Assembly: GCA_026400935.1 (NCBI GenBank)
Contig: JAPLNX010000165.1
Location: forward strand, 2,097 to 66,096
Length of the DNA: 64,000 bases
Reading direction: 5' to 3'
DNA from: Planctomycetia bacterium
Lineage (GTDB): Bacteria; Planctomycetota; Planctomycetia; Planctomycetales; Planctomycetaceae
Shown: positions 1 through 8,562 of the stretch, one piece after another
Layout of the letters: each line of letters begins with the position of its first letter
Position numbering within the stretch: the stretch's first letter is position 1
Translations under genes and position numbers: made by a program
The notes under the pieces: model-generated
The model's input: only the letters and a program-made list of their open reading frames with translations
Told to the model about the DNA's origin: nothing
Database searches by the model: none

Positions 1-1250
1 TCACGGCAGCGCAGTGGCTCGCGCTGGGTAAGGAGATCACGACGCCGGATGCCCGCGCGCCGCAGATTCAGGGGAAAGTGATTGCCGTTCTGACTGCGAC
101 AACGAAAGCGGCCGCAGCGAAGCTCGCGACGGCGAATCAACCGGCGGATGCAGAGACGCAGGCGTTGCTCAGCGGGTTGAACGAATTCATTCTCCGCACC
201 GACTGGCATGCGAAGCTCGGCAAGACGACGGCGGACATTGCGGCAGTCGTCGATAGCAAAGTGATCTCGTTCGCGATTGCCGATTATCACGAAGACCCGA
301 AGCAGTGGTCTGACGTGGAATCGCGCATGTTTTTGCGGCTGTTGCTTGAGCATGCGTTTGCGAACGCAATGCCGCGTCGCAACGCGACAGCGGGGCCGCG
401 ACGAACATTGAGTTATCTCGGACGTGGCGACTATTTCGGCGAGATGGGATTGATGACCGGCGAACCTCGTTCAGCGACGATCTACGCTTACGACCATCCG
501 GACGGTGGCGCGAACATGCGTGTGCCGGACTCGCGCACGGGTGCGGTGCCGTCACGTGTTGAGTTAGTGAAGATCAGCAAGGAAGCGTTTCAAAAGCTTT
601 GTGCTCAATCACCAAAGGTGAAGGCCCGCGTCGAAGAGATGATTGTGAAACGCCGCGCGTTCTCCGCACAGCAGATCAAATCGGATGCTTCCGAATTGAT
701 TGCGAGTCACGCTCAATCGCCGGAGTTCGAGCAGCTTGGTTTGATTCAGGGCCAGAAGCTGATGCTGATTGATCTCGATCGTTGCACTCGCTGCAATCAA
801 TGCGTGGAAGCATGCGTCGCGGCTCATGACGACGGTCACACGCGGCTGTATCTCGATGGGCCGCGTTTCGAGAATTTTCTCGTGCCGATCTCGTGCCGAT
901 CGTGCCTCGATCCAGTTTGCATGATTGGTTGCCCGGTTGGGTCGATCAATCGAGGCGACAAGGGTGAGATCGTTATCGAAAACTGGTGCATCGGCTGCGG
1001 CATGTGTGCGGAGCAATGTCCGTATGGCTCGATCGTGATGAACCCGTTGACCAAACCCGCCGATCTTAGTCCTGAAGCACGGAAGGCGCTCGGTGCGGAA
1101 GCGAAGATGAGCACAATCACCGAACAAGCGGTCGTCTGCGATCTGTGTAGCTCGCTCCCCAGTCAAGATCCTTCGTGCGTTTATGCCTGTCCGCACGACG
1201 CGGCGATGCGAGTCCATGCTCAAGACTACTTCATGAGCGGAAAGAGATAG
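1..1250 (+). CDS. cyclic-nucleotide-binding domain / four-cluster [4Fe-4S] ferredoxin fusion protein (5' end outside window)
   Basis: The reading frame is open from nt 3 to the TAG at 1248-1250, so track ORF 78..1250 is only the first in-window start. It has a cNMP phosphate-binding cassette GRGDYFGEMGLMTGEPRSATIYA. It has four Cys groups, CTRCNQCVEAC, CRSCLDPVCMIGCP, CIGCGMCAEQCP and CDLCS...CVYACP, as in NrfC/DmsB-type ferredoxins. Confidence 0.8.
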   Translation, partial: TAAQWLALGKEITTPDARAPQIQGKVIAVLTATTKAAAAKLATANQPADAETQALLSGLNEFILRTDWHAKLGKTTADIAAVVDSKVISFAIADYHEDPKQWSDVESRMFLRLLLEHAFANAMPRRNATAGPRRTLSYLGRGDYFGEMGLMTGEPRSATIYAYDHPDGGANMRVPDSRTGAVPSRVELVKISKEAFQKLCAQSPKVKARVEEMIVKRRAFSAQQIKSDASELIASHAQSPEFEQLGLIQGQKLMLIDLDRCTRCNQCVEACVAAHDDGHTRLYLDGPRFENFLVPISCRSCLDPVCMIGCPVGSINRGDKGEIVIENWCIGCGMCAEQCPYGSIVMNPLTKPADLSPEARKALGAEAKMSTITEQAVVCDLCSSLPSQDPSCVYACPHDAAMRVHAQDYFMSGKR

Positions 1251-1251
1251 C

Positions 1252-3063
1252 GTGTTAATCGACCGCACACACAACCGATGGTTCATGCTCTCGACGGCGA
1301 TCGTTGCGATCGGGGCAGTGGCGTATTCTGTCGAACGGTTGTCGCCACACGGAGCGACCGGTGGCAGCGTGTTGGGGTTAATCTTCGGCATTGTCGGTTC
1401 TGTGTTCATGGTCATTGCCGCGTTACTGGCGGTTCGCAAGAGGTTGCCGACTTGGCGAGTCGGTTCGGCAAAAGCATGGCTGCGAGCACATCTGTGGTTG
1501 GGAACGGTCGGCTTTGTGTTGATCTTGTTTCATTCCGGTTTTGGTTGGGGTGGGTTGCTCGAAAACTTGCTGTGGATTTCGTTTGGTCTCGTTGTCGTGA
1601 CCGGCTTTGCGGGGCTCGCACTGCAACAAGTGATTCCAAAGTTGCTCAGGTCCGAAGTGCCGCTCGAAACGTTCGTCGCACAGATTTCGTTTCTTGCCAA
1701 GACGATGTTGTTCCGAGCGGATCAATTGGTGGCCATGCAAACCGGGCCGCTCGATGTTCCGTTTGAAAAGCTGACTCCGTTTGCGACTGCTGTGCTCAAG
1801 CAACAAGGGGTCTTGAAGCGCGAGTCTGATTTGCCGAAGGAACTCGCGAAGGTTTACGCGAACGTTCCGCAGCCCGAAGGTGAAAAGAAGGGGCATACCG
1901 CTGAGAAGCCTGTAGCGGCTCCGAAGCTCACGGCAACCGAGACACCCGTCGCGGCAACGCCCTCTGCTGCGGCGACGTCAGCGAAACCGACGAGCGAGCA
2001 AGCGGCTCCCGTAACGAAGTCGAAATCGCCGTTGCAATTGATGCAGGAAAAGAAAGCCGCCGCCGCGAAGGAAACAGAGTCGAAAGAAGTCGCGAGCGTG
2101 CCCGCAGGTTCGGTTGCTGAAGCGACTGCGGCAAAGCCGAAATCGCCGCTCGAACTGATGCGTGAGAAAACGGCCGCGAAAGCTGCTGCTGCCGGTCCCG
2201 AAGCAACGACTGAACCTGTCGCAACGCCGGCTGCTCAGCCGAGCGAGAAGAAGCTGTCGCCGCTTGAACTGATGCGAGCGAAGCAGGGGGCGAAACAAAG
2301 TCCGACTGCTGATACCAGCGAATCACCTGTGAATGAAACTGTTGCCGAGCGGCCGAGCGAGAAAAACCTTTCGCCAGTTGAAGCCATGCGGGCAAAGTTG
2401 TCCGCGGCAAAAGGCTCACCGTCTGACAAGCCTGCGGAGACACCGAAGCCGCTGACCGTCGCGGAGAAGTTTGCGACTGGGCAAGTAATCCCACTGGCGA
2501 GCGAGGCGGCGTCAGCCCCCCAGTCTGTTGAGCAAAGTCCCGTACTTGTTGAACAGAGTCTCGTGTCTGATGAGCAAGCCACCGGGGGGCTGACGCCGCC
2601 CCGTTCGCCAAGTGCTGTTGCTGCTCCGCCGATCGTCAAGAAGCCGTTGCCGATTTCCAAGCCAGTCGCAAGTGCGGAAAATGTGGCTGCAACAAGTGCG
2701 GCTGCGAAGCCCCAGCTTGTCGTTATCTCGCCCATTCAAATCGCCGAATTGCGTGACTTTCATTTGAAGATCGTGCGACCGTACTTGGACAGAGGGATTT
2801 CGCCGCAGCATGGTTTAAATGAGTCAATCACCGCTCGAAGATTGTTCGGTCAGTTGAAATCCGACTTACCCGCGGAGTTGCATGAAGTCCTAGAACAGCT
2901 CGCAAGCTGCTGTGAAGAACGTCGGCAATTCGCCGTTCAAAAGCGACTACATCGTTGGCTGCATTGGTGGCTGATTCTGCACATCCCGCCGTCGATCGCC
3001 ATGTTGGTATTGTTTGTCGCTCACGTTTTGATGTCGCTGCGAGTGGTCCCGTTTGGAAGGTAG
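1252..3063 (+). CDS. integral membrane protein with two His-x13-His helices (cytochrome-b / ferric-reductase-like), split by a ~440-aa low-complexity linker
   Basis: GTG start lies 1 nt after the upstream stop. There are four N-terminal TM helices and one C-terminal TM helix. His80/His94 lie in RAHLWLGTVGFVLILFHSGF and His577/His591 in LILHIPPSIAMLVLFVAHVLM. The middle is rich in Ala, Pro, Ser, Lys and Glu. Confidence 0.75.
   Translation: MLIDRTHNRWFMLSTAIVAIGAVAYSVERLSPHGATGGSVLGLIFGIVGSVFMVIAALLAVRKRLPTWRVGSAKAWLRAHLWLGTVGFVLILFHSGFGWGGLLENLLWISFGLVVVTGFAGLALQQVIPKLLRSEVPLETFVAQISFLAKTMLFRADQLVAMQTGPLDVPFEKLTPFATAVLKQQGVLKRESDLPKELAKVYANVPQPEGEKKGHTAEKPVAAPKLTATETPVAATPSAAATSAKPTSEQAAPVTKSKSPLQLMQEKKAAAAKETESKEVASVPAGSVAEATAAKPKSPLELMREKTAAKAAAAGPEATTEPVATPAAQPSEKKLSPLELMRAKQGAKQSPTADTSESPVNETVAERPSEKNLSPVEAMRAKLSAAKGSPSDKPAETPKPLTVAEKFATGQVIPLASEAASAPQSVEQSPVLVEQSLVSDEQATGGLTPPRSPSAVAAPPIVKKPLPISKPVASAENVAATSAAAKPQLVVISPIQIAELRDFHLKIVRPYLDRGISPQHGLNESITARRLFGQLKSDLPAELHEVLEQLASCCEERRQFAVQKRLHRWLHWWLILHIPPSIAMLVLFVAHVLMSLRVVPFGR
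2017..2400 (+). repeat. four tandem ~38-aa coding repeats carrying an SPLELMRxK motif
   Basis: SPLQLMQEK (nt 2026), SPLELMREK (2143), SPLELMRAK (2257) and SPVEAMRAK (2371). The motifs start at aa 259, 298, 336 and 374 of the 603-aa protein. Confidence 0.8.
2495..2610. repeat. imperfect 30-bp inverted repeat (27/30) with 56-nt spacer, embedded in frame in a CDS
   Basis: The arm at 2495-2524 (tggcgagcgaggcggcgtcagccccccagt) matches the reverse complement of 2581-2610. Both strands therefore translate to TGGLTPPRSP: the + ORF and the antisense track ORF 1928..2611. Confidence 0.85.
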
Positions 3064-4692
3064 TTGGTCATGCTGCGTTCGAGCCGAGAACTTTCCAGTC
3101 GTCTGAAAATCGACGGGCATAAAAGCCCGGATCGATTTCGTCGCACGACGTGGTGGTTCGCGTTGTGGGCGGGAGTCGGATCGTTGATGTGGCTGTCGTG
3201 GCAACATGTGCAAGGAGAGAACGCGATCTACCAAGCGGGACCGGTCAGTACGCCGCATCGCTTCATCGAGAACAACTGCGAGAAGTGCCACACGACTTGG
3301 ACACCGCTGCAACGTTTGGTCTCGCTCAGCGATGACCGGCACTCCGTCAAGAATCAGAAGTGTGAACTCTGTCATCGCGTGGCCGAACATCACCACAACC
3401 AATCGCCGCGTCACGAAACGATTTCTTGCGCAGTATGCCATCAAGAGCACGACGGAGCCGAGATGCTCCAGCGTCCGAGCAACCGCTTCTGCATCGCGTG
3501 TCACTCCAAATTGGATTCGCTAGCTCACCCGAACGATTTGCAAGACGAGTCCGTCAAACCTGCCGAGACGTTTGCAAGTAACGTGACTCAGTTCGATCTC
3601 GCCGGCGGACATCCGGAGTTCCGTTTGAAGACACTGCTCGTGCCAGAACACGCGGACGAGAAGCCTGCGAAAGAACACGGAGCGCTCCGCACAGTTGAGC
3701 ATTTTCAGCGACCCGGTGAGACAGAATCGAAATGGCAAGATCGCGGTCGCATTCGGTTCAATCATGCCGCGCACTTGAAGGCCGAACGTGACGCGAAAGG
3801 TGAGTTGGTTTACGGCCTTATCGGCAAGGATCGCAAATTCATCGATTTGTCTCAAAGCTGCGAAAAGTGCCATGAACCAGACAACGAACGGCGCTTTATG
3901 AAGCCGATCTCATTCGAACGACATTGCGGTGAATGTCATCCGCTGCTGTTCGATCACCAACGCTTCCCCGGCCAAAGTGTGCCTCATCAGACGCCCGACA
4001 TCGTGCGTGGTTTCTTGACGGAGACTTACACACTGCAAGCGTTGAAGAACGAAGCGGTCGGCGGATCAGCAAATGAAACCTCGACGAAGAAATCCGAACT
4101 GCCGCGATCAATTCCGGGGCATCGCGATTTTCAGAGTGATTCACAAAAGCTATCGAAAGATCAAGCTCAAAGAGTCGATGATGCTGTCAATCAAGCGGAA
4201 GTAATCATGCAACAGCATCGCCACCGACAGTTCGGATACGAAGCGACCGGCGGATGTCGTTACTGCCATCAAGTCGAGCCGACGGCTGAAAAAGCAAACG
4301 CCGACAAGCCGACAGTCTCGCGTGCCGATTGGAAAATTGTCCCGACCAACATCCCGCAACGGTGGCTGGCACACGGTGAGTTTCATCATGGATCACATCG
4401 CTTGCTGAATTGCGCGGTATGTCACGTCGATGTCGAGAAAAGTAAGAGCACCGGTGACGTGCTAATCCCGTCGATCAATGTCTGCCGCGCGTGTCACTCG
4501 GCTGACCCGTCGCTGTGGTCGGACGCGTTGAACTCCAAGAGTTCAGGCAATGAGTCGCCAAGCCGACTGTCAGAGCACAGCGTGAAAGAACTTTTGGCAA
4601 AGAGTCGGCAAGGTGCGCGCTTCGATTGCATCGAGTGCCACCGCTACCACAACCACCACGGAGAAAAATTGAACGGGCCGTTTACGAGATAG
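3064..4692 (+). CDS. membrane-anchored decaheme c-type cytochrome
   Basis: Ten CxxCH motifs: CEKCH, CELCH, CAVCH, CIACH, CEKCH, CGECH, CRYCH, CAVCH, CRACH, CIECH. N-terminal TM anchor TTWWFALWAGVGSLMWLSW. The start abuts the upstream stop (TTG 3064, alternative ATG 3070). Confidence 0.9.
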   Translation: MVMLRSSRELSSRLKIDGHKSPDRFRRTTWWFALWAGVGSLMWLSWQHVQGENAIYQAGPVSTPHRFIENNCEKCHTTWTPLQRLVSLSDDRHSVKNQKCELCHRVAEHHHNQSPRHETISCAVCHQEHDGAEMLQRPSNRFCIACHSKLDSLAHPNDLQDESVKPAETFASNVTQFDLAGGHPEFRLKTLLVPEHADEKPAKEHGALRTVEHFQRPGETESKWQDRGRIRFNHAAHLKAERDAKGELVYGLIGKDRKFIDLSQSCEKCHEPDNERRFMKPISFERHCGECHPLLFDHQRFPGQSVPHQTPDIVRGFLTETYTLQALKNEAVGGSANETSTKKSELPRSIPGHRDFQSDSQKLSKDQAQRVDDAVNQAEVIMQQHRHRQFGYEATGGCRYCHQVEPTAEKANADKPTVSRADWKIVPTNIPQRWLAHGEFHHGSHRLLNCAVCHVDVEKSKSTGDVLIPSINVCRACHSADPSLWSDALNSKSSGNESPSRLSEHSVKELLAKSRQGARFDCIECHRYHNHHGEKLNGPFTR

Positions 4693-4712
4693 AAAAAGAC
4701 CTGACCACGTTG

Positions 4713-4771
4713 GTAGGACGGGCACTCCTGCCCGTCATCTGACTTTCGACGAGCAAGAGTGCCCGTCCTAC
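4713..4771. repeat. REP-like palindromic element / probable terminator hairpin
   Basis: gtaggacgggcactc (4713-4727) pairs with gagtgcccgtcctac (4757-4771). An inner hairpin gacgggca-ctcc-tgcccgtc lies at 4717-4736. The element sits directly after the decaheme gene. Confidence 0.8.
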
Positions 4772-4814
4772 AAAATCTGAACGCCCACCTTAGGTCGGCA
4801 GCAACTCCACCACG

Positions 4815-6377
4815 ATGTCGCACTTTGCTCCTTTACGTCTGCTGAGCCTAATAGTCGTCGCTGCGATCCTGTTCGCGGCGTTGGGGCGGGAGCGTGTCCA
4901 GACGGCTCCGCCGAACGAATCCAAAGCCAAGATAACAGCAACTCCGCGACTTGTAGGCAGCGCGTCCTGTGCGGCGGCGGCCTGTCATGGTGGGCTGGGC
5001 GGACAGCCGATTGTGGGCGCTGAATACTCCATTTGGTCACAGCGTGACCCGCATTCGCGAGCGTACTCGGTCTTGTTGAATGATCTGTCGCAGCAGATGG
5101 CGAAACGCTTAGAACTCAAACAACCGGCGCATGAGTCTGCCGTTTGCTTGAACTGTCATTCGCCCGTGACGACGACTGCGGAGAAGGCTGTGATGCAGTC
5201 AGCACCGGTTCGCGAACAGCATCTGATCGAGGGTGTCAGTTGCGAGCACTGTCACGGCCCGGCAGAGCATTGGTTGACCGCTCACGTCCGCAAAGATTGG
5301 AAGCCTCGCTCGACTGATGAGAGGCTACGACTTGGATACCGCGACCTGACAGACGTGCTCTCGCGAGCCAACTTGTGCGTCGATTGCCACGTCGGCGGGC
5401 CGGGTCGCGACGTAAATCACGACCTCATTGCGGCTGGGCATCCCCGTCTGTTCTTTGAACTCTCTGCCTTCCACGCCAACTGGCCAAAACATTGGCCAAG
5501 AGAGCTCGTAGGTCGGGCACCCCTGCCCGACCACACAAGCCCGACACGCAAGCGAGGGGTCGAGGAAACAGGGAACGGTAACCAGGGAACAAGAAGCGAG
5601 CAGCGTGCCTCTTCTTTTGAAGCAAAGTTGTGGGCCGTCGGCCAAGTCGTGACGGCTCAGCGTTCGTTGGAGTTGTTGTCTCAGCGTGCGGCGCATGCCG
5701 ATGCAAACCCATCAGCAAATTGGCCTGAATTGGCGGAATGGAATTGCTTCGCCTGCCATCACGATTTGCAAGCCGGCAGTTGGCGTCAGGCACGGGGTCC
5801 GTTAGCGAATGTCAGCCGCGTTAAAGATTCGTTCGTGGGAAACGCTTGGCCGTATGCATTGATTGAACCGCTGGCGATCACGACGAATCATGCGGAACTA
5901 GTCGGTGAGAAATCGTTATGGCAGCCTTTGCGTTCATTGATTGCCAAGTCCGCTCCGCCGCCTGTGCCAATTCAAAAACAGGCTCTAATGATTGCGGCCG
6001 AGCTTCGGGCTTGGGCAAAAGACTTAAATCATCGTGACACCGCCGAACAGCATTTCTCAGCGGCGGCCATCGACAAGCTACAACTCAGTCTGCTTGGTGA
6101 TGTTGGAGCAAAGCTGGTGGCCCAAGACTGGGACTCGGCCACGCAATTGATGCTGGCGCTGACGTCGCTGCATCACGCCAGCATCGCTCTGCGGACGGCA
6201 ACAACTCCGGTGGACGAGCAACGTGATCGCGAGATTCATGCAGTGATCGACTCAATGAATGAGACTTTGAACTTTCCATTGGGGTTTCAAAGCCCACGCG
6301 ATTTCGCAGACAAACCGATCGAACGTTTGCAAACGGATTTGCTCCGGTTGCGAAAACTGTTGACCTCACCGAAATGA
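4815..6377 (+). CDS. pentaheme c-type cytochrome (paralog 1)
   Basis: N-terminal signal-anchor. Heme motifs CAAAACH (Cx4CH), CLNCH, CEHCH, CVDCH, CFACH. Colinear with the next ORF through SCE.CHGPA, AAGHP, FELS.F...PKHW and WPELA...CFACHHDL. Confidence 0.85.
   Translation: MSHFAPLRLLSLIVVAAILFAALGRERVQTAPPNESKAKITATPRLVGSASCAAAACHGGLGGQPIVGAEYSIWSQRDPHSRAYSVLLNDLSQQMAKRLELKQPAHESAVCLNCHSPVTTTAEKAVMQSAPVREQHLIEGVSCEHCHGPAEHWLTAHVRKDWKPRSTDERLRLGYRDLTDVLSRANLCVDCHVGGPGRDVNHDLIAAGHPRLFFELSAFHANWPKHWPRELVGRAPLPDHTSPTRKRGVEETGNGNQGTRSEQRASSFEAKLWAVGQVVTAQRSLELLSQRAAHADANPSANWPELAEWNCFACHHDLQAGSWRQARGPLANVSRVKDSFVGNAWPYALIEPLAITTNHAELVGEKSLWQPLRSLIAKSAPPPVPIQKQALMIAAELRAWAKDLNHRDTAEQHFSAAAIDKLQLSLLGDVGAKLVAQDWDSATQLMLALTSLHHASIALRTATTPVDEQRDREIHAVIDSMNETLNFPLGFQSPRDFADKPIERLQTDLLRLRKLLTSPK
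5508..5532. repeat. copy of the 4713-type hairpin lying inside the cytochrome CDS
   Basis: gtagg-t-cgggca-cccc-tgcccg-a-c compared with the intergenic gtagg-a-cgggca-ctcc-tgcccg-t-c. The a/t to t/a change is compensatory and keeps the stem. It translates as VGRAPLPD and is followed by TSPTRKRG. Confidence 0.75.
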
Positions 6378-8119
6378 AGACATGCATGGAGAATGCTCCC
6401 ATGAATGATGAGTGGAATTGCTTTGTGTCGCACGCGACTCGAGTGTGTCGATGTCTTGTTGATTGTCGCGCGAACCGCGTGCGCCACATCAGTGTTTTCG
6501 CGTTTTTGTTGCTGATGCCGATGACTTTGATCGCTCAAGACGCGACGGTGAAAAGCTCTAATGGCCAGCGGACGTTTCTTGGAGCGGCCAATTGTGTGAT
6601 GTGCCACAACAACGGTTTGCCCAAAGCCGATGATGCAAATGCGGCGGCGTTGGAGGTTCTCGGTTTCACGGGGCTTGCAAATAACAGTTGGGTGACGTTG
6701 GAGGAATTGAAACTGTGGGCCAATCAAGACAAACACTCGCAAGCTTTCACGTCGCTGTTGAATGAACGCTCGCACCAAATGGGGAAGCTGCTGGGTGTTG
6801 CTGAAATTCATCGCGACAAACGCTGCCTCACTTGTCATACCGCGTACCCGTTGACTGCGATGGGAAATGATCCGCACTTGATCACGCCTGAGTTGGTCAA
6901 GAATCTGCGAGTGACTCAAGGGATTAGCTGCGAAGGTTGTCATTCACCGGCTGGAGATTCTCGCGGAGAGGGTGCTGTGGTGACTGGCTGGTTTCAGCCG
7001 CATGCTCAGCGCGACTTGTGGTGGCTCTTGTCCGCGAAGGATAAGCAAGACAAGTTTGGTTTCACCGATATCCGCTCAGCGACCGCCCGCACGCGGCTCT
7101 GTTTAACGTGTCATCTTGGCAACGCAGCCGAAGGGAAAGTGGTTACTCACGAAATGTATGCCGCAGGACATCCACCGTTGCCGGGCTTCGAGTTATCGAC
7201 TTTTGCAGCTCAGATGCCAAAGCATTGGCGAGATTTCGATAAGAAGTCAGAGGCCGTTCGCGATGAGTTCTTGAAGAAGAACATGGATGATGTCTACGGT
7301 CGCGACTCGTTCAAGCTCGACAACTTGCATGAGACGAACAATGTCCTCGTGGCCGCATTGGTGGCGTTCAGCGAGAATCTCAAACTGGCGTCGGCGCTCG
7401 CAGATGAAACAATGACGATGCCGGTGGCTAAGCCCGATTGGCCGGAGTTGGCTCAGTTTGAATGCTTTGCCTGCCACCATGATTTGAAAGATCGAAGCTG
7501 GCGTCAGCGTCGGACGCTGCGCGGTGCTCCCGGTCGCCCGATGCTACGAGCATGGCCAACAACATTGACGAAGCTGGCGATCAAGCGAGCTGGGCACGAT
7601 CCGAAAGAGTTCGATCAACGCTTGCAGGTGATCGAGAAGTTGCTCAGCGAGCAACCGTTCGGACGTCGCGAGCGTTGGCACGCAACAATCCGCCCGTTGA
7701 CCGATTGGCTCGACGAACAAGCGTTGTCGCTCGAACGGAAACCATTGCCGCGCGAAACGGGCTTCGGGTTACTCCGCGAGATTGCTGTCGTCGCGGAAAG
7801 TGATCTGTGGGATTACGACTCGGCTCGGCAACTCGTCTGGGCCGCGCAAACTTTGCGTCGTGAACTATCGAGCGAGCGCAGTGACGAAGCGCTGCGATCG
7901 AAAGTCGCCGCGTTGGAGACATCATTTGCAGAAATCGAAAAGCTCTTCGTGCTCGATCTGATTCAAGGCCGTAAAGCTCAGCAACAACTGCCCGGTTCAA
8001 CAAAGAGCCGTGAAGTTCAAGAAGTCGACCTCGAAAAGATGCTGCCACCAATCGCCAACTACGATGCAGGAGTCTTTCGCGATCAGTTTCACAAACTGGC
8101 GACGAAGCTTACTCCGTAG
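6374..8119 (+). CDS. pentaheme c-type cytochrome (paralog 2)
   Basis: CVMCH, CLTCH, CEGCH, CLTCH, CFACH. The ATG at 6374 overlaps the upstream TGA (ATGA). An in-frame GTG at 6479 would give a cleaner signal peptide (RHISVFAFLLLMPMTLIAQD), so the start is uncertain. Confidence 0.85.
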   Translation: MKTCMENAPMNDEWNCFVSHATRVCRCLVDCRANRVRHISVFAFLLLMPMTLIAQDATVKSSNGQRTFLGAANCVMCHNNGLPKADDANAAALEVLGFTGLANNSWVTLEELKLWANQDKHSQAFTSLLNERSHQMGKLLGVAEIHRDKRCLTCHTAYPLTAMGNDPHLITPELVKNLRVTQGISCEGCHSPAGDSRGEGAVVTGWFQPHAQRDLWWLLSAKDKQDKFGFTDIRSATARTRLCLTCHLGNAAEGKVVTHEMYAAGHPPLPGFELSTFAAQMPKHWRDFDKKSEAVRDEFLKKNMDDVYGRDSFKLDNLHETNNVLVAALVAFSENLKLASALADETMTMPVAKPDWPELAQFECFACHHDLKDRSWRQRRTLRGAPGRPMLRAWPTTLTKLAIKRAGHDPKEFDQRLQVIEKLLSEQPFGRRERWHATIRPLTDWLDEQALSLERKPLPRETGFGLLREIAVVAESDLWDYDSARQLVWAAQTLRRELSSERSDEALRSKVAALETSFAEIEKLFVLDLIQGRKAQQQLPGSTKSREVQEVDLEKMLPPIANYDAGVFRDQFHKLATKLTP

Positions 8120-8163
8120 TGCGGTAGACAGTGGGGAGAACATTCAATTCGTGAGTAATCCGT

Positions 8164-8562
8164 ATGAAGTTTTCTCTCTTAAATATTGGCTACTTCATGT
8201 TTGTTGGGTTGATTGCTGGCGAATTTGCAATCGACCAGCAGAGGAACATCAACGTTGGAAATCTGATCTACGATCAATTTGACGGTCATTTACGCAGCAT
8301 GACAAAGGCTGATGTCACTGAAATCGTCTTTCGAAACGTGCTCACGATGTCGTTGATCGTCGGCATAGTCGCAACGATTGTCTGGATGGCTTTAACCAGT
8401 TTTTCGAAGATCGTTGAGCGACCACGAACGGTTGCCGTCAATGCGATCATTGGCTTATCGATTGGTGCGCTTATTTCAACAACGGTTTACCAAATACTGG
8501 ATGGGTTCGGTGTTTCGATTTCAGATGGGTTCAGGATGCTGTTACGGCCAATAATAGAATAA
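8164..8562 (+). CDS. small hypothetical membrane protein
   Basis: 132-aa ORF with about three hydrophobic helices. It is visibly more AT-rich than its surroundings. No recognisable motif. Confidence 0.45.
   Translation: MKFSLLNIGYFMFVGLIAGEFAIDQQRNINVGNLIYDQFDGHLRSMTKADVTEIVFRNVLTMSLIVGIVATIVWMALTSFSKIVERPRTVAVNAIIGLSIGALISTTVYQILDGFGVSISDGFRMLLRPIIE

Follow-up and report, generated by a model that had tools for sequence, protein, structure and literature searches.

The contig JAPLNX010000165.1 of a Planctomycetia bacterium (GenBank assembly GCA_026400935.1) was analyzed over a stretch of 64,000 nucleotides (nt), referred to here as the window. Close to its left end, an open reading frame (ORF; 1252-3063, forward strand, GTG start) of 603 amino acids (aa) encodes a putative redox membrane protein, the target of this study, in which the fifth transmembrane (TM) helix is parted from the first four by a long Ala/Pro/Ser/Lys/Glu-rich linker holding four copies of one short peptide. 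The question raised by this locus is what a repeated peptide does in such a protein. A first-pass annotation, made from the letters of the sequence, had assigned the TM layout, the biased composition of the linker and the four motif positions, all of which were confirmed from the ORF and hydropathy (hydrophobic segments at aa ~10-28, 38-62, 75-96, 101-126 and 570-600; SPLQLMQEK at aa 259, SPLELMREK at 298, SPLELMRAK at 336 and SPVEAMRAK at 374). The best explanation of the data, held with slightly more confidence than doubt, is that the target is the diheme membrane subunit of a five-gene redox module and that its linker bears a portable, multivalent docking array. New here is the combination of a predicted TM b-type cytochrome with an array of docking motifs, each of a known kind.

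The array is carried by two different subunits of the module. In the locus of a Schlesneria metagenome-assembled genome (MAG), the membrane subunit was compact (330 aa) and without the motif, and the divergently transcribed partner, a cyclic nucleoside monophosphate-binding iron-sulfur (cNMP/FeS) protein of 1243 aa, contained an Ala/Pro-rich insert with repeated PKKLSP[LI]E[LQ]MRAK; the third motif copy of the target is identical to the first copy in this partner protein. Searches with the Schlesneria insert recovered two kinds of protein only, enlarged partners and long-form membrane subunits. The array partners numbered 28 (26 of 1049-1243 aa, one 701-aa fragment and one of compact size) and held one to six copies, placed after the second cNMP domain. 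Five more partner-borne loci had compact membrane subunits (286-315 aa), all without the motif, and across the six, Schlesneria included, the enlarged partners were 1143-1243 aa long. Among distinct loci with both genes complete, the array was found on the membrane subunit only in 13, on the partner only in 6, on neither in 50 and on both in 0; this table was enriched for motif-bearing loci, several of them found via the motif, and its proportions are not frequencies. The array is on one subunit or the other and never on both in this sample, an exclusivity that stands despite the sampling. In a tree built from the ordered modules, membrane-borne forms made up one supported clade, and the partner-borne forms were monophyletic in a clade of their own on the compact side. 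The nearest relative of the target in this core tree was from a Planctomyces sp. MAG (92% core identity). One membrane-borne-array gene from a contig labelled as a Candidatus Kuenenia stuttgartiensis MAG nests among Planctomycetia/Planctomycetaceae sequences in the tree, and that contig may be mis-binned.

Nothing beyond these two subunits was found to carry the array. A scan with the back-translated motif, using one genome per species, gave 34 stretches. All planctomycete matches were in the two subunits, and all except one in members of the membrane-subunit family; the ~20 matches outside the planctomycetes compare with ~17 estimated by chance and were mostly in short frames, with three in open frames of >300 codons. 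Across 1.04 Mb of retrieved planctomycete DNA, every strict instance of the motif (88/88) likewise lay in the two subunits, and no third protein family with the array was found by the insert search, in the 1.04 Mb or among the one-genome-per-species planctomycete matches. As the same peptide is on either subunit and on nothing else, the array appears to serve the complex as a whole, and since most complexes are without it, it would be an accessory. The first-pass annotation had treated the motif as a feature of this membrane protein; it is present there, but another clade carries the array on its FeS partner. The move between subunits, if true, marks the array as an autonomous, transferable docking device and would give a clear bacterial case of a repeated, selected and copy-variable motif moved between two subunits of a respiratory-type complex. 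Comparable behavior is documented for chloroplast ferredoxin-NADP+ reductase (FNR) tethers and Rubisco linkers; we know of no such mobile motif array in prokaryotic membrane redox complexes.

The four copies of the target begin at nt 2026, 2143, 2257 and 2371, with spacings of 39, 38 and 38 residues (117, 114 and 114 nt). The 38-39-residue phasing noted in the first pass is thus correct for the target but does not extend to the family, where the median spacing is 42 residues (interquartile range, 37-49) and the membrane subunits have 0-8 copies. Composition-preserving shuffles of the linker yielded even one motif match in 8 of 20000 cases, and a six-frame search found no match elsewhere in the 64-kb window. 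Alignment of 413 unique instances extended the nonamer to a unit of ~16 residues, KKLSP[LI]ExM[RK]AKAAAK. With Pro as position +1 (100%), positions -4 to -1 were K (76%), K (63%), L (66%) and S (94%; T, 5%); +2 to +4 were L/I (93%), E (88%) and variable (Q, 47%; L, 28%); +5 to +8 were M (92%), R/K (90%), A (61%) and K (81%); and +10 to +12 were A (83%), A (75%) and K (52%). The Ser-Pro-x-Glu string is a helix N-cap box, and helical folding would line up L+2, M+5 and A+9 as a narrow hydrophobic stripe between basic residues. In the AlphaFold2 (AF2) model of the target, all four copies form a short helix.

This peptide is under purifying selection. Between relatives whose ordered modules were 93-97% identical, linkers were 59-64% identical and differed by many indels, and the four motifs persisted at orthologous positions. 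The ratio of nonsynonymous to synonymous substitution rates (dN/dS) was 0.12-0.16 for motif codons, 0.28-0.34 for the other linker codons and 0.04-0.11 for the ordered modules (dS, 0.56-0.81). The motif is therefore a conserved island in a fast-evolving, disordered and indel-rich segment, as expected of a docking short linear motif, and the profile, AF2 helices and dN/dS together bear out the first-pass view of it as a conserved short helical element. The copies were only 61-78% identical as DNA, so it is conserved as a peptide and not as DNA. A DNA-level repeat element was considered as the origin of the motif and rejected: the DNA was less alike than the peptide, and Tandem Repeats Finder reported no tandem array. 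Exact periodicity (51-53 residues) was confined to some proteins, which indicates that the arrays arose by tandem duplication followed by drift.

Recent tandem duplication in those proteins would also suit a reading in which the motif is merely a helix-nucleating unit that spread by such duplication and sets the dimensions of the linker, as an entropic spacer or bristle. Capping boxes such as Ser-Pro-x-Glu start helices in general, and the loop accepts other insertions, among them a palindromic element and zinc ribbons described below. A spacer, however, would hardly explain why L/I(+2), M(+5), R/K(+6) and K(+8) keep 81-93% conservation among proteins with cores of only 30-40% identity and in two host proteins, why the copies in the window have diverged as DNA, or why dN/dS is 2-3 times lower in the motif than in the rest of the linker; we regard it as quite unlikely. 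The near-invariant Ser-Pro could instead be targeted by planctomycete Ser/Thr kinases, so that phosphorylation switches linker conformation or partner binding and tunes electron flow jointly with the cNMP sensor domains. Position -1 is Ser or Thr and never Asp or Asn, although both of these also cap helices, and the partner is sensor-like, with three cNMP-binding domains. Against this, no kinase or phosphatase was present in the conserved cluster among the loci compared, and conservation over 16 residues is far longer than a kinase site; such regulation seems still more doubtful than a spacer. Anchoring of the linker to the inner leaflet by amphipathic motif helices is the least probable of these proposals, scarcely to be expected at all. 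The motif is basic (net about +4) and adjoins the membrane, but its hydrophobic moment is low (0.08-0.24; MinD and FtsA peptides were used for comparison), its mean hydrophobicity is negative, its hydrophobic side chains are only Leu, Met and Ala with Gln at +4 in nearly half of the instances, and the array also occurs mid-way in a soluble protein. A membrane-binding helix was accordingly rejected on the hydrophobic moment. Docking of a partner from outside the complex ranks above the spacer and phospho-regulation readings, and above a tether within the complex, which is taken up below.

Comparison with relatives showed that the linker has been inserted into a compact fold. At least 85 of 237 relatives with both ordered modules had linkers of ≤120 aa; none of these at least 85 carried the motif, which was found only where the linker was ≥120 aa. 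Compact relatives (~290 aa) make up about a third of the family, and the model of one (predicted local distance difference test score [pLDDT], 90; predicted template modelling score, 0.80) has five TM helices and a helical cytoplasmic domain, with a low-confidence loop at residues ~167-188 that coincides with the insert site of the target. In the AF2 model of the target, aa ~202-493 had a pLDDT of 40-55, and aa 142-201 and 494-565 were confidently helical. The disordered linker of ~440 aa described in the first pass is too long by this measure: the truly disordered part, as modeled, is ~290 aa, and the remainder of the gap belongs to an ordered helical domain in the cytoplasm, which the compact relatives share. 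The region between TM4 and TM5 has a composition of A, 18.7%; P, 12.5%; S, 10%; K, 9.7%; and E, 9%. The linker is a lineage-specific insertion in a flexible cytoplasmic loop of an ordered core, as one of the two first-pass readings held. The accompanying expectation for homologs, that linker length would vary with the motif and the four His residues conserved, held for linker length and for the His residues and failed for the motif, which most family members lack.

Other lineages have filled the same loop differently. Seven motif-less long-linker homologs (P0056, P0058, P0060, P0062, P0064, P0079 and P0089; 773-1001 aa) hold one or two small Cys4 zinc-ribbon-like modules between TM4 and TM5, exemplified by ITCERCGKVF...GRCPVKECQ, which occurs twice in P0058; in P0079, a degenerate SPLEQARR directly follows the zinc ribbon. 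Because such modules occupy the same loop in other lineages, the TM4-TM5 cytoplasmic loop is a hotspot for accessory modules. The target linker also contains an in-frame palindromic repeat with arms that are complementary at 27 of 30 positions and are translated as ...TGGLTPPRSP.... The window shares it with the nearest relative (L007), three further close relatives lack it, and sequences matching its arms occur on unrelated contigs from DNA as well as RNA runs. Since the arms recur in unrelated contigs and the palindrome is shared with the nearest relative only, it is a dispersed hairpin repeat recently inserted into coding sequence.

What the array could dock depends on the side of the membrane on which it lies. 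Mean K+R counts were 4.6 for loop 2 and 0.5-0.7 for loops 1 and 3, which fits an N-in topology; by the positive-inside rule, TM3 and TM5 are therefore both predicted to run from the cytoplasm to the periplasm. The array is cytoplasmic: in the membrane protein it occupies the positive-inside side, and in the other clade its host is an FeS protein without a signal peptide. It therefore cannot dock the periplasmic cytochromes, which have a signal peptide or an N-terminal anchor, contrary to one first-pass proposal. The motif may still dock the neighboring FeS protein, but this is no longer the simplest reading. In the mechanism that we favor, the hemes of the membrane subunit would pass electrons between the cytoplasmic cNMP/FeS partner and the periplasmic c-type cytochromes with 10+5+5 hemes. 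The insert (residues ~202-493), with its four helical motif copies in a cytoplasmic loop, would belong to an accessory module of the whole complex, portable between either cytoplasm-facing subunit, and the multivalent array most likely captures a cytoplasmic protein on the face where electrons enter or leave. Because neither a flavin nor an NAD(P)H module is encoded in the cluster, a cytoplasmic donor or acceptor would have to come from elsewhere, and the leading candidate for capture would be an electron donor/acceptor or a regulator encoded outside the cluster. Basic docking helices near the FeS entry point are plausible as a capture device. That the motif binds a protein, and which one, is something that we infer from these features. 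The 16-residue peptide could serve as bait for the partner at the cytoplasmic face, and hence for the purpose of the complex.

The closest documented analogue of the array is the FNR membrane-recruitment motif of Tic62/TROL, with Rubisco-binding sticker arrays second. The Tic62/TROL motif of chloroplasts is short, lies in a flexible region and recruits soluble FNR to the membrane, and like the planctomycete motif it occurs on two different carrier proteins; it differs in being eukaryotic, Ser/Pro-rich and a polyproline II helix rather than an α-helix, and in having a known partner. The Rubisco-binding helices of EPYC1 and CsoS2 are repeated in a disordered chain with ~40-60-residue spacing and variable copy number and act multivalently (PMC10274861, PMC10614612). 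Those proteins are soluble scaffolds that condense Rubisco, whereas the planctomycete array is grafted into a subunit of a membrane redox complex. By these analogies, the array might be a multivalent antenna, a bacterial counterpart of Tic62/TROL that concentrates a soluble redox partner, or clusters the complexes, at the cytoplasmic face of the electron conduit and has moved between subunits, a proposal that we advance tentatively and with less than even confidence. The partner of such an antenna would be, for example, an acidic ferredoxin, a flavodoxin or a dehydrogenase.

A tether within the complex would instead have the motif bind, in cis or in trans, a pocket on its own cNMP/FeS partner or on the helical domain of the membrane subunit, either holding the subunits together or cross-linking neighboring complexes into membrane patches. 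The two carriers belong to one and the same complex and no other carrier was found, the peptide could reach the same pocket from either subunit, and up to 8 copies would fit a sticker-and-linker assembly (by analogy with PMC10274861). Yet the 50 of 69 sampled complexes that lack any array keep both subunits adjacent, which makes it unneeded for association, and the length and domain content of the partner are the same with or without the motif on the membrane subunit. Residues common to both array-bearing clades and absent in array-less ones (24 columns in the partner, 1 in the membrane subunit) gave no pocket signature; the comparison is confounded by phylogeny, as the array-less sample is dominated by one clade and the differences may reflect that clade's own changes. 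A tether of this kind is unlikely, and docking of a partner encoded outside the cluster is preferred.

The other half of the explanation concerns the membrane core. His80 and His94 on TM3 (99% and 100% conserved) and His577 and His591 on TM5 (97% each) are similarly conserved in compact forms, and each pair is separated by 14 residues. The second pair lies beyond the linker, as the first-pass annotation stated, and the two His-bearing helices are compatibly oriented, both running from inside to outside, which puts His80 and His577 toward the cytoplasmic side of the membrane and His94 and His591 toward its periplasmic side. In NOX-type ferric-reductase domains, TM3 and TM5 likewise bear two His pairs at a separation of 13-14 residues, and such spacing on a parallel TM3 and TM5 was found in the target. 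This placement matches, on sequence grounds, the standard geometry of two stacked b-hemes, and the four near-invariant His residues most likely ligate two such hemes. The core is thus predicted, with fairly good confidence, to be a diheme-b conduit. Heme binding, and the existence and direction of electron transfer, are points that we infer.

Recurrent matches to heme-b families were seen and fell short of curated cut-offs. Among 116 relatives, weak sub-threshold Pfam matches were to DUF4405 in 31, Ferric_reduct in 13 (E≤1) and Ni_hydr_CYTB in 2. Residues 45-97 of the target (TM2-TM3) matched Ferric_reduct (PF01794) over profile positions 1-54 of 121 with an E value of 0.0013, and the score of 19.3 bits did not reach the gathering cut-off of 28. 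For DUF4405 (PF14358), none of the 31 reached the gathering score of 26.7 bits (best E value, 0.0018), and the target itself had an E value of 0.99. Membership of the ferric-reductase/DUF4405 class is undemonstrated for the target. DUF4405 proteins bind heme b, as shown experimentally, and resemble MsrQ and PepSY-like cytochromes (PMC11334425).

Several results weigh against the combined explanation. On the heme side, all Pfam matches to heme-b families are below their cut-offs, a search of the family profile against solved structures found no homolog by sequence, and hhalign gave non-significant probabilities of 2.4% for E. coli MsrQ and 1.2% for the b561-type YodB. Foldseek searches of solved structures with the pLDDT-90 compact model had a best E value of 0.32 and template modelling scores of ≤0.40, the top matches all being soluble helical bundles. 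The core has five TM helices, by sequence and in both AF2 models, versus six in DUF4405 models (PMC11334425). On the array side, most complexes do without any array, which is then not needed for core function, the residue comparison pinned down no candidate for a binding partner of the motif, and the loci tabulated were enriched for motif carriers.

These results leave some room for a core that is not a TM diheme wire, in which the His residues bind another metal or a single heme, or which is a quinol-interacting anchor of the NarI or NrfD type through which the quinone pool is connected with the FeS and cytochrome partners. Searches revealed no solved heme protein with significant similarity, the conserved H571 (95%), H544 (93%) and C554 (87%) are unexplained, and the polar E104, E139, T140 and Q144 (with D157, 98-100% conserved) could form a quinone or ion site. 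The two His pairs with 14-residue spacing on parallel helices are nonetheless the classic bis-heme-b arrangement, FeS clusters lie on one side of the membrane and c-hemes on the other, and weak matches to DUF4405, Ferric_reduct and Ni_hydr_CYTB recur, which makes a different core rather improbable. The predicted diheme-b conduit is retained.

Compared with known b-type cytochromes, the target resembles MsrQ, PepSY-like, DUF4405 and FezC proteins in its central conserved TM His residues and predicted TM electron carriage. Unlike in the MsrQ/DUF4405 class, the loop between TM4 and TM5 has grown into a helical cytoplasmic domain of ~135 aa, and its partners are a cNMP/FeS protein and multiheme c-type cytochromes rather than flavinylated or molybdo-enzymes. 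Tmc/Hmc-type complexes of sulfate reducers encode periplasmic multiheme c-type cytochromes, a membrane cytochrome b and cytoplasmic FeS proteins together. The target cluster shares this combination, but its b subunit is unrelated to the NarI/HdrE type and its FeS protein has cNMP-binding domains and no CCG domain. Tmc/Hmc complexes are not known to contain a disordered motif array.

The membrane-subunit family is uncharacterised. No family model in Pfam or NCBIfam matched the target, and a DUF202 match of 17-22 bits was discarded as below the cut-off and merely a generic two-TM match. Word-index searches recovered 162 relatives of 370-1001 aa, and an exhaustive HMMER search recovered 2197 at E<1e-3, many of which were only 280-310 aa and matched as two stretches (N-terminal, 1-170; C-terminal, ~490-603). 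One compact member had >890 relatives of its own, all "hypothetical". Every source-named organism with a family member belongs to Planctomycetota; relatives came from freshwater, marine and soil metagenomes, and none had a functional name. The gene is almost always found after the cNMP/FeS gene and before the multiheme c-type cytochrome genes, distant homologs with unrelated flanking genes keep the same five-gene order, and in 80 metagenome loci the partner gene was directly upstream and co-oriented wherever the contig was long enough. At full length, relatives of the partner measure ~755 aa; they have FeS domains as well as three cNMP-binding stretches and lack a signal peptide. Literature searches with motif strings and with the domain combination of the cluster returned nothing relevant, and no earlier description of either was found. 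The cluster, widespread in Planctomycetota, looks like a TM electron path that would join a cyclic-nucleotide-sensing FeS protein to 20 periplasmic c-hemes.

Table 1. Features of the target gene and its cluster, in window coordinates
Feature	Position	Strand	Evidence or remarks
Gene 1, cNMP/FeS partner	3..1250	+	5' end cut by window; C-terminal 415 aa
Target membrane subunit	1252..3063	+	putative 5-TM diheme-b core with disordered cytoplasmic insert
TM helices 1-4	1279..1629	+	hydropathy; AF2 helices aa 6-29, 40-64, 73-95, 102-133
His80 (TM3)	1489-1491
His94 (TM3)	1531-1533
Ordered cytoplasmic helical domain, first half, aa ~142-201	1675..1854	+	AF2 pLDDT 91-97; conservation
Invariant E139/T140/Q144/D157 region			assigned to first half of cytoplasmic domain; conservation
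Disordered Ala/Pro/Ser/Lys/Glu-rich insert, aa ~202-493	1855..2730	+	pLDDT ~40-55
Motif copy 1, KSKSPLQLMQEKKAAA, core aa 259-267	2017..2064	+	AF2 helix 260-269; orthologous in near relatives
Motif copy 2, KPKSPLELMREKTAAK, core aa 298-306	2134..2181	+	AF2 helix 301-304; orthologous in near relatives
Motif copy 3, KKLSPLELMRAKQGAK, core aa 336-344	2248..2295	+	AF2 helix 337-343
Motif copy 4, KNLSPVEAMRAKLSAA, core aa 374-382	2362..2409	+	AF2 helix 375-383
In-frame palindromic repeat in linker	2495..2610	.	arms 2495-2524 and 2581-2610
Ordered cytoplasmic helical domain, second half, aa ~494-565	2731..2946	+	AF2 pLDDT 93-98
Conserved R509, H544, C554, R558/Q559			second half of cytoplasmic domain; conservation
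TM helix 5, aa ~566-598	2947..3045	+	hydropathy; continuous with long AF2 helix 541-598
His571 (TM5)	2962-2964
His577 (TM5)	2980-2982
His591 (TM5)	3022-3024
Gene 3, decaheme c-type cytochrome	3064..4692	+	10 CxxCH; N-terminal membrane anchor
Gene 4, pentaheme c-type cytochrome	4815..6377	+	4 CxxCH + 1 Cx4CH; signal peptide
Gene 5, pentaheme c-type cytochrome	6374..8119	+	5 CxxCH; signal peptide; paralog of gene 4

Within the window, gene 1 encodes a cNMP-binding domain and 4Fe-4S dicluster domains (Pfam cNMP_binding and Fer4 families). Its stop codon (1248-1250) is one base ahead of the target GTG, the TTG start of gene 3 directly follows the target stop (3061-3066), and genes 4 and 5 overlap by 4 nt (6374-6377); these tight junctions and the overlap suggest translational coupling along the cluster. 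A public DNA contig was identical to window positions 1-8200 except for one difference, and river metatranscriptome contigs from a ~90%-identical relative covered parts of gene 1, the N-terminal module of the target and gene 5. The window organism is a freshwater planctomycete. In gene 4, the first heme site (aa 52) is Cx4CH (SCAAAACH), and gene 5 has CxxCH at that site.

Partner proteins showed further variation. Those that bear the array (L014, 4033-7764; P0367-P0394) have a second insertion of ~135 aa, which interrupts the FeS region at a point between residues ~687 and ~697 in the numbering of the 755-aa form, and a partner of 933 aa without the motif in one metagenome locus (L043) points to another kind of insertion. 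In the partner-borne clade (L014 and L118-L122), the operon is split and divergent, with the compact membrane subunit and two cytochromes on one strand and the enlarged partner and two more cytochromes on the other. Of the five loci for which genes were called, four (L118-L120 and L122) have an HlyD/CzcB-like adaptor gene beside the cluster.

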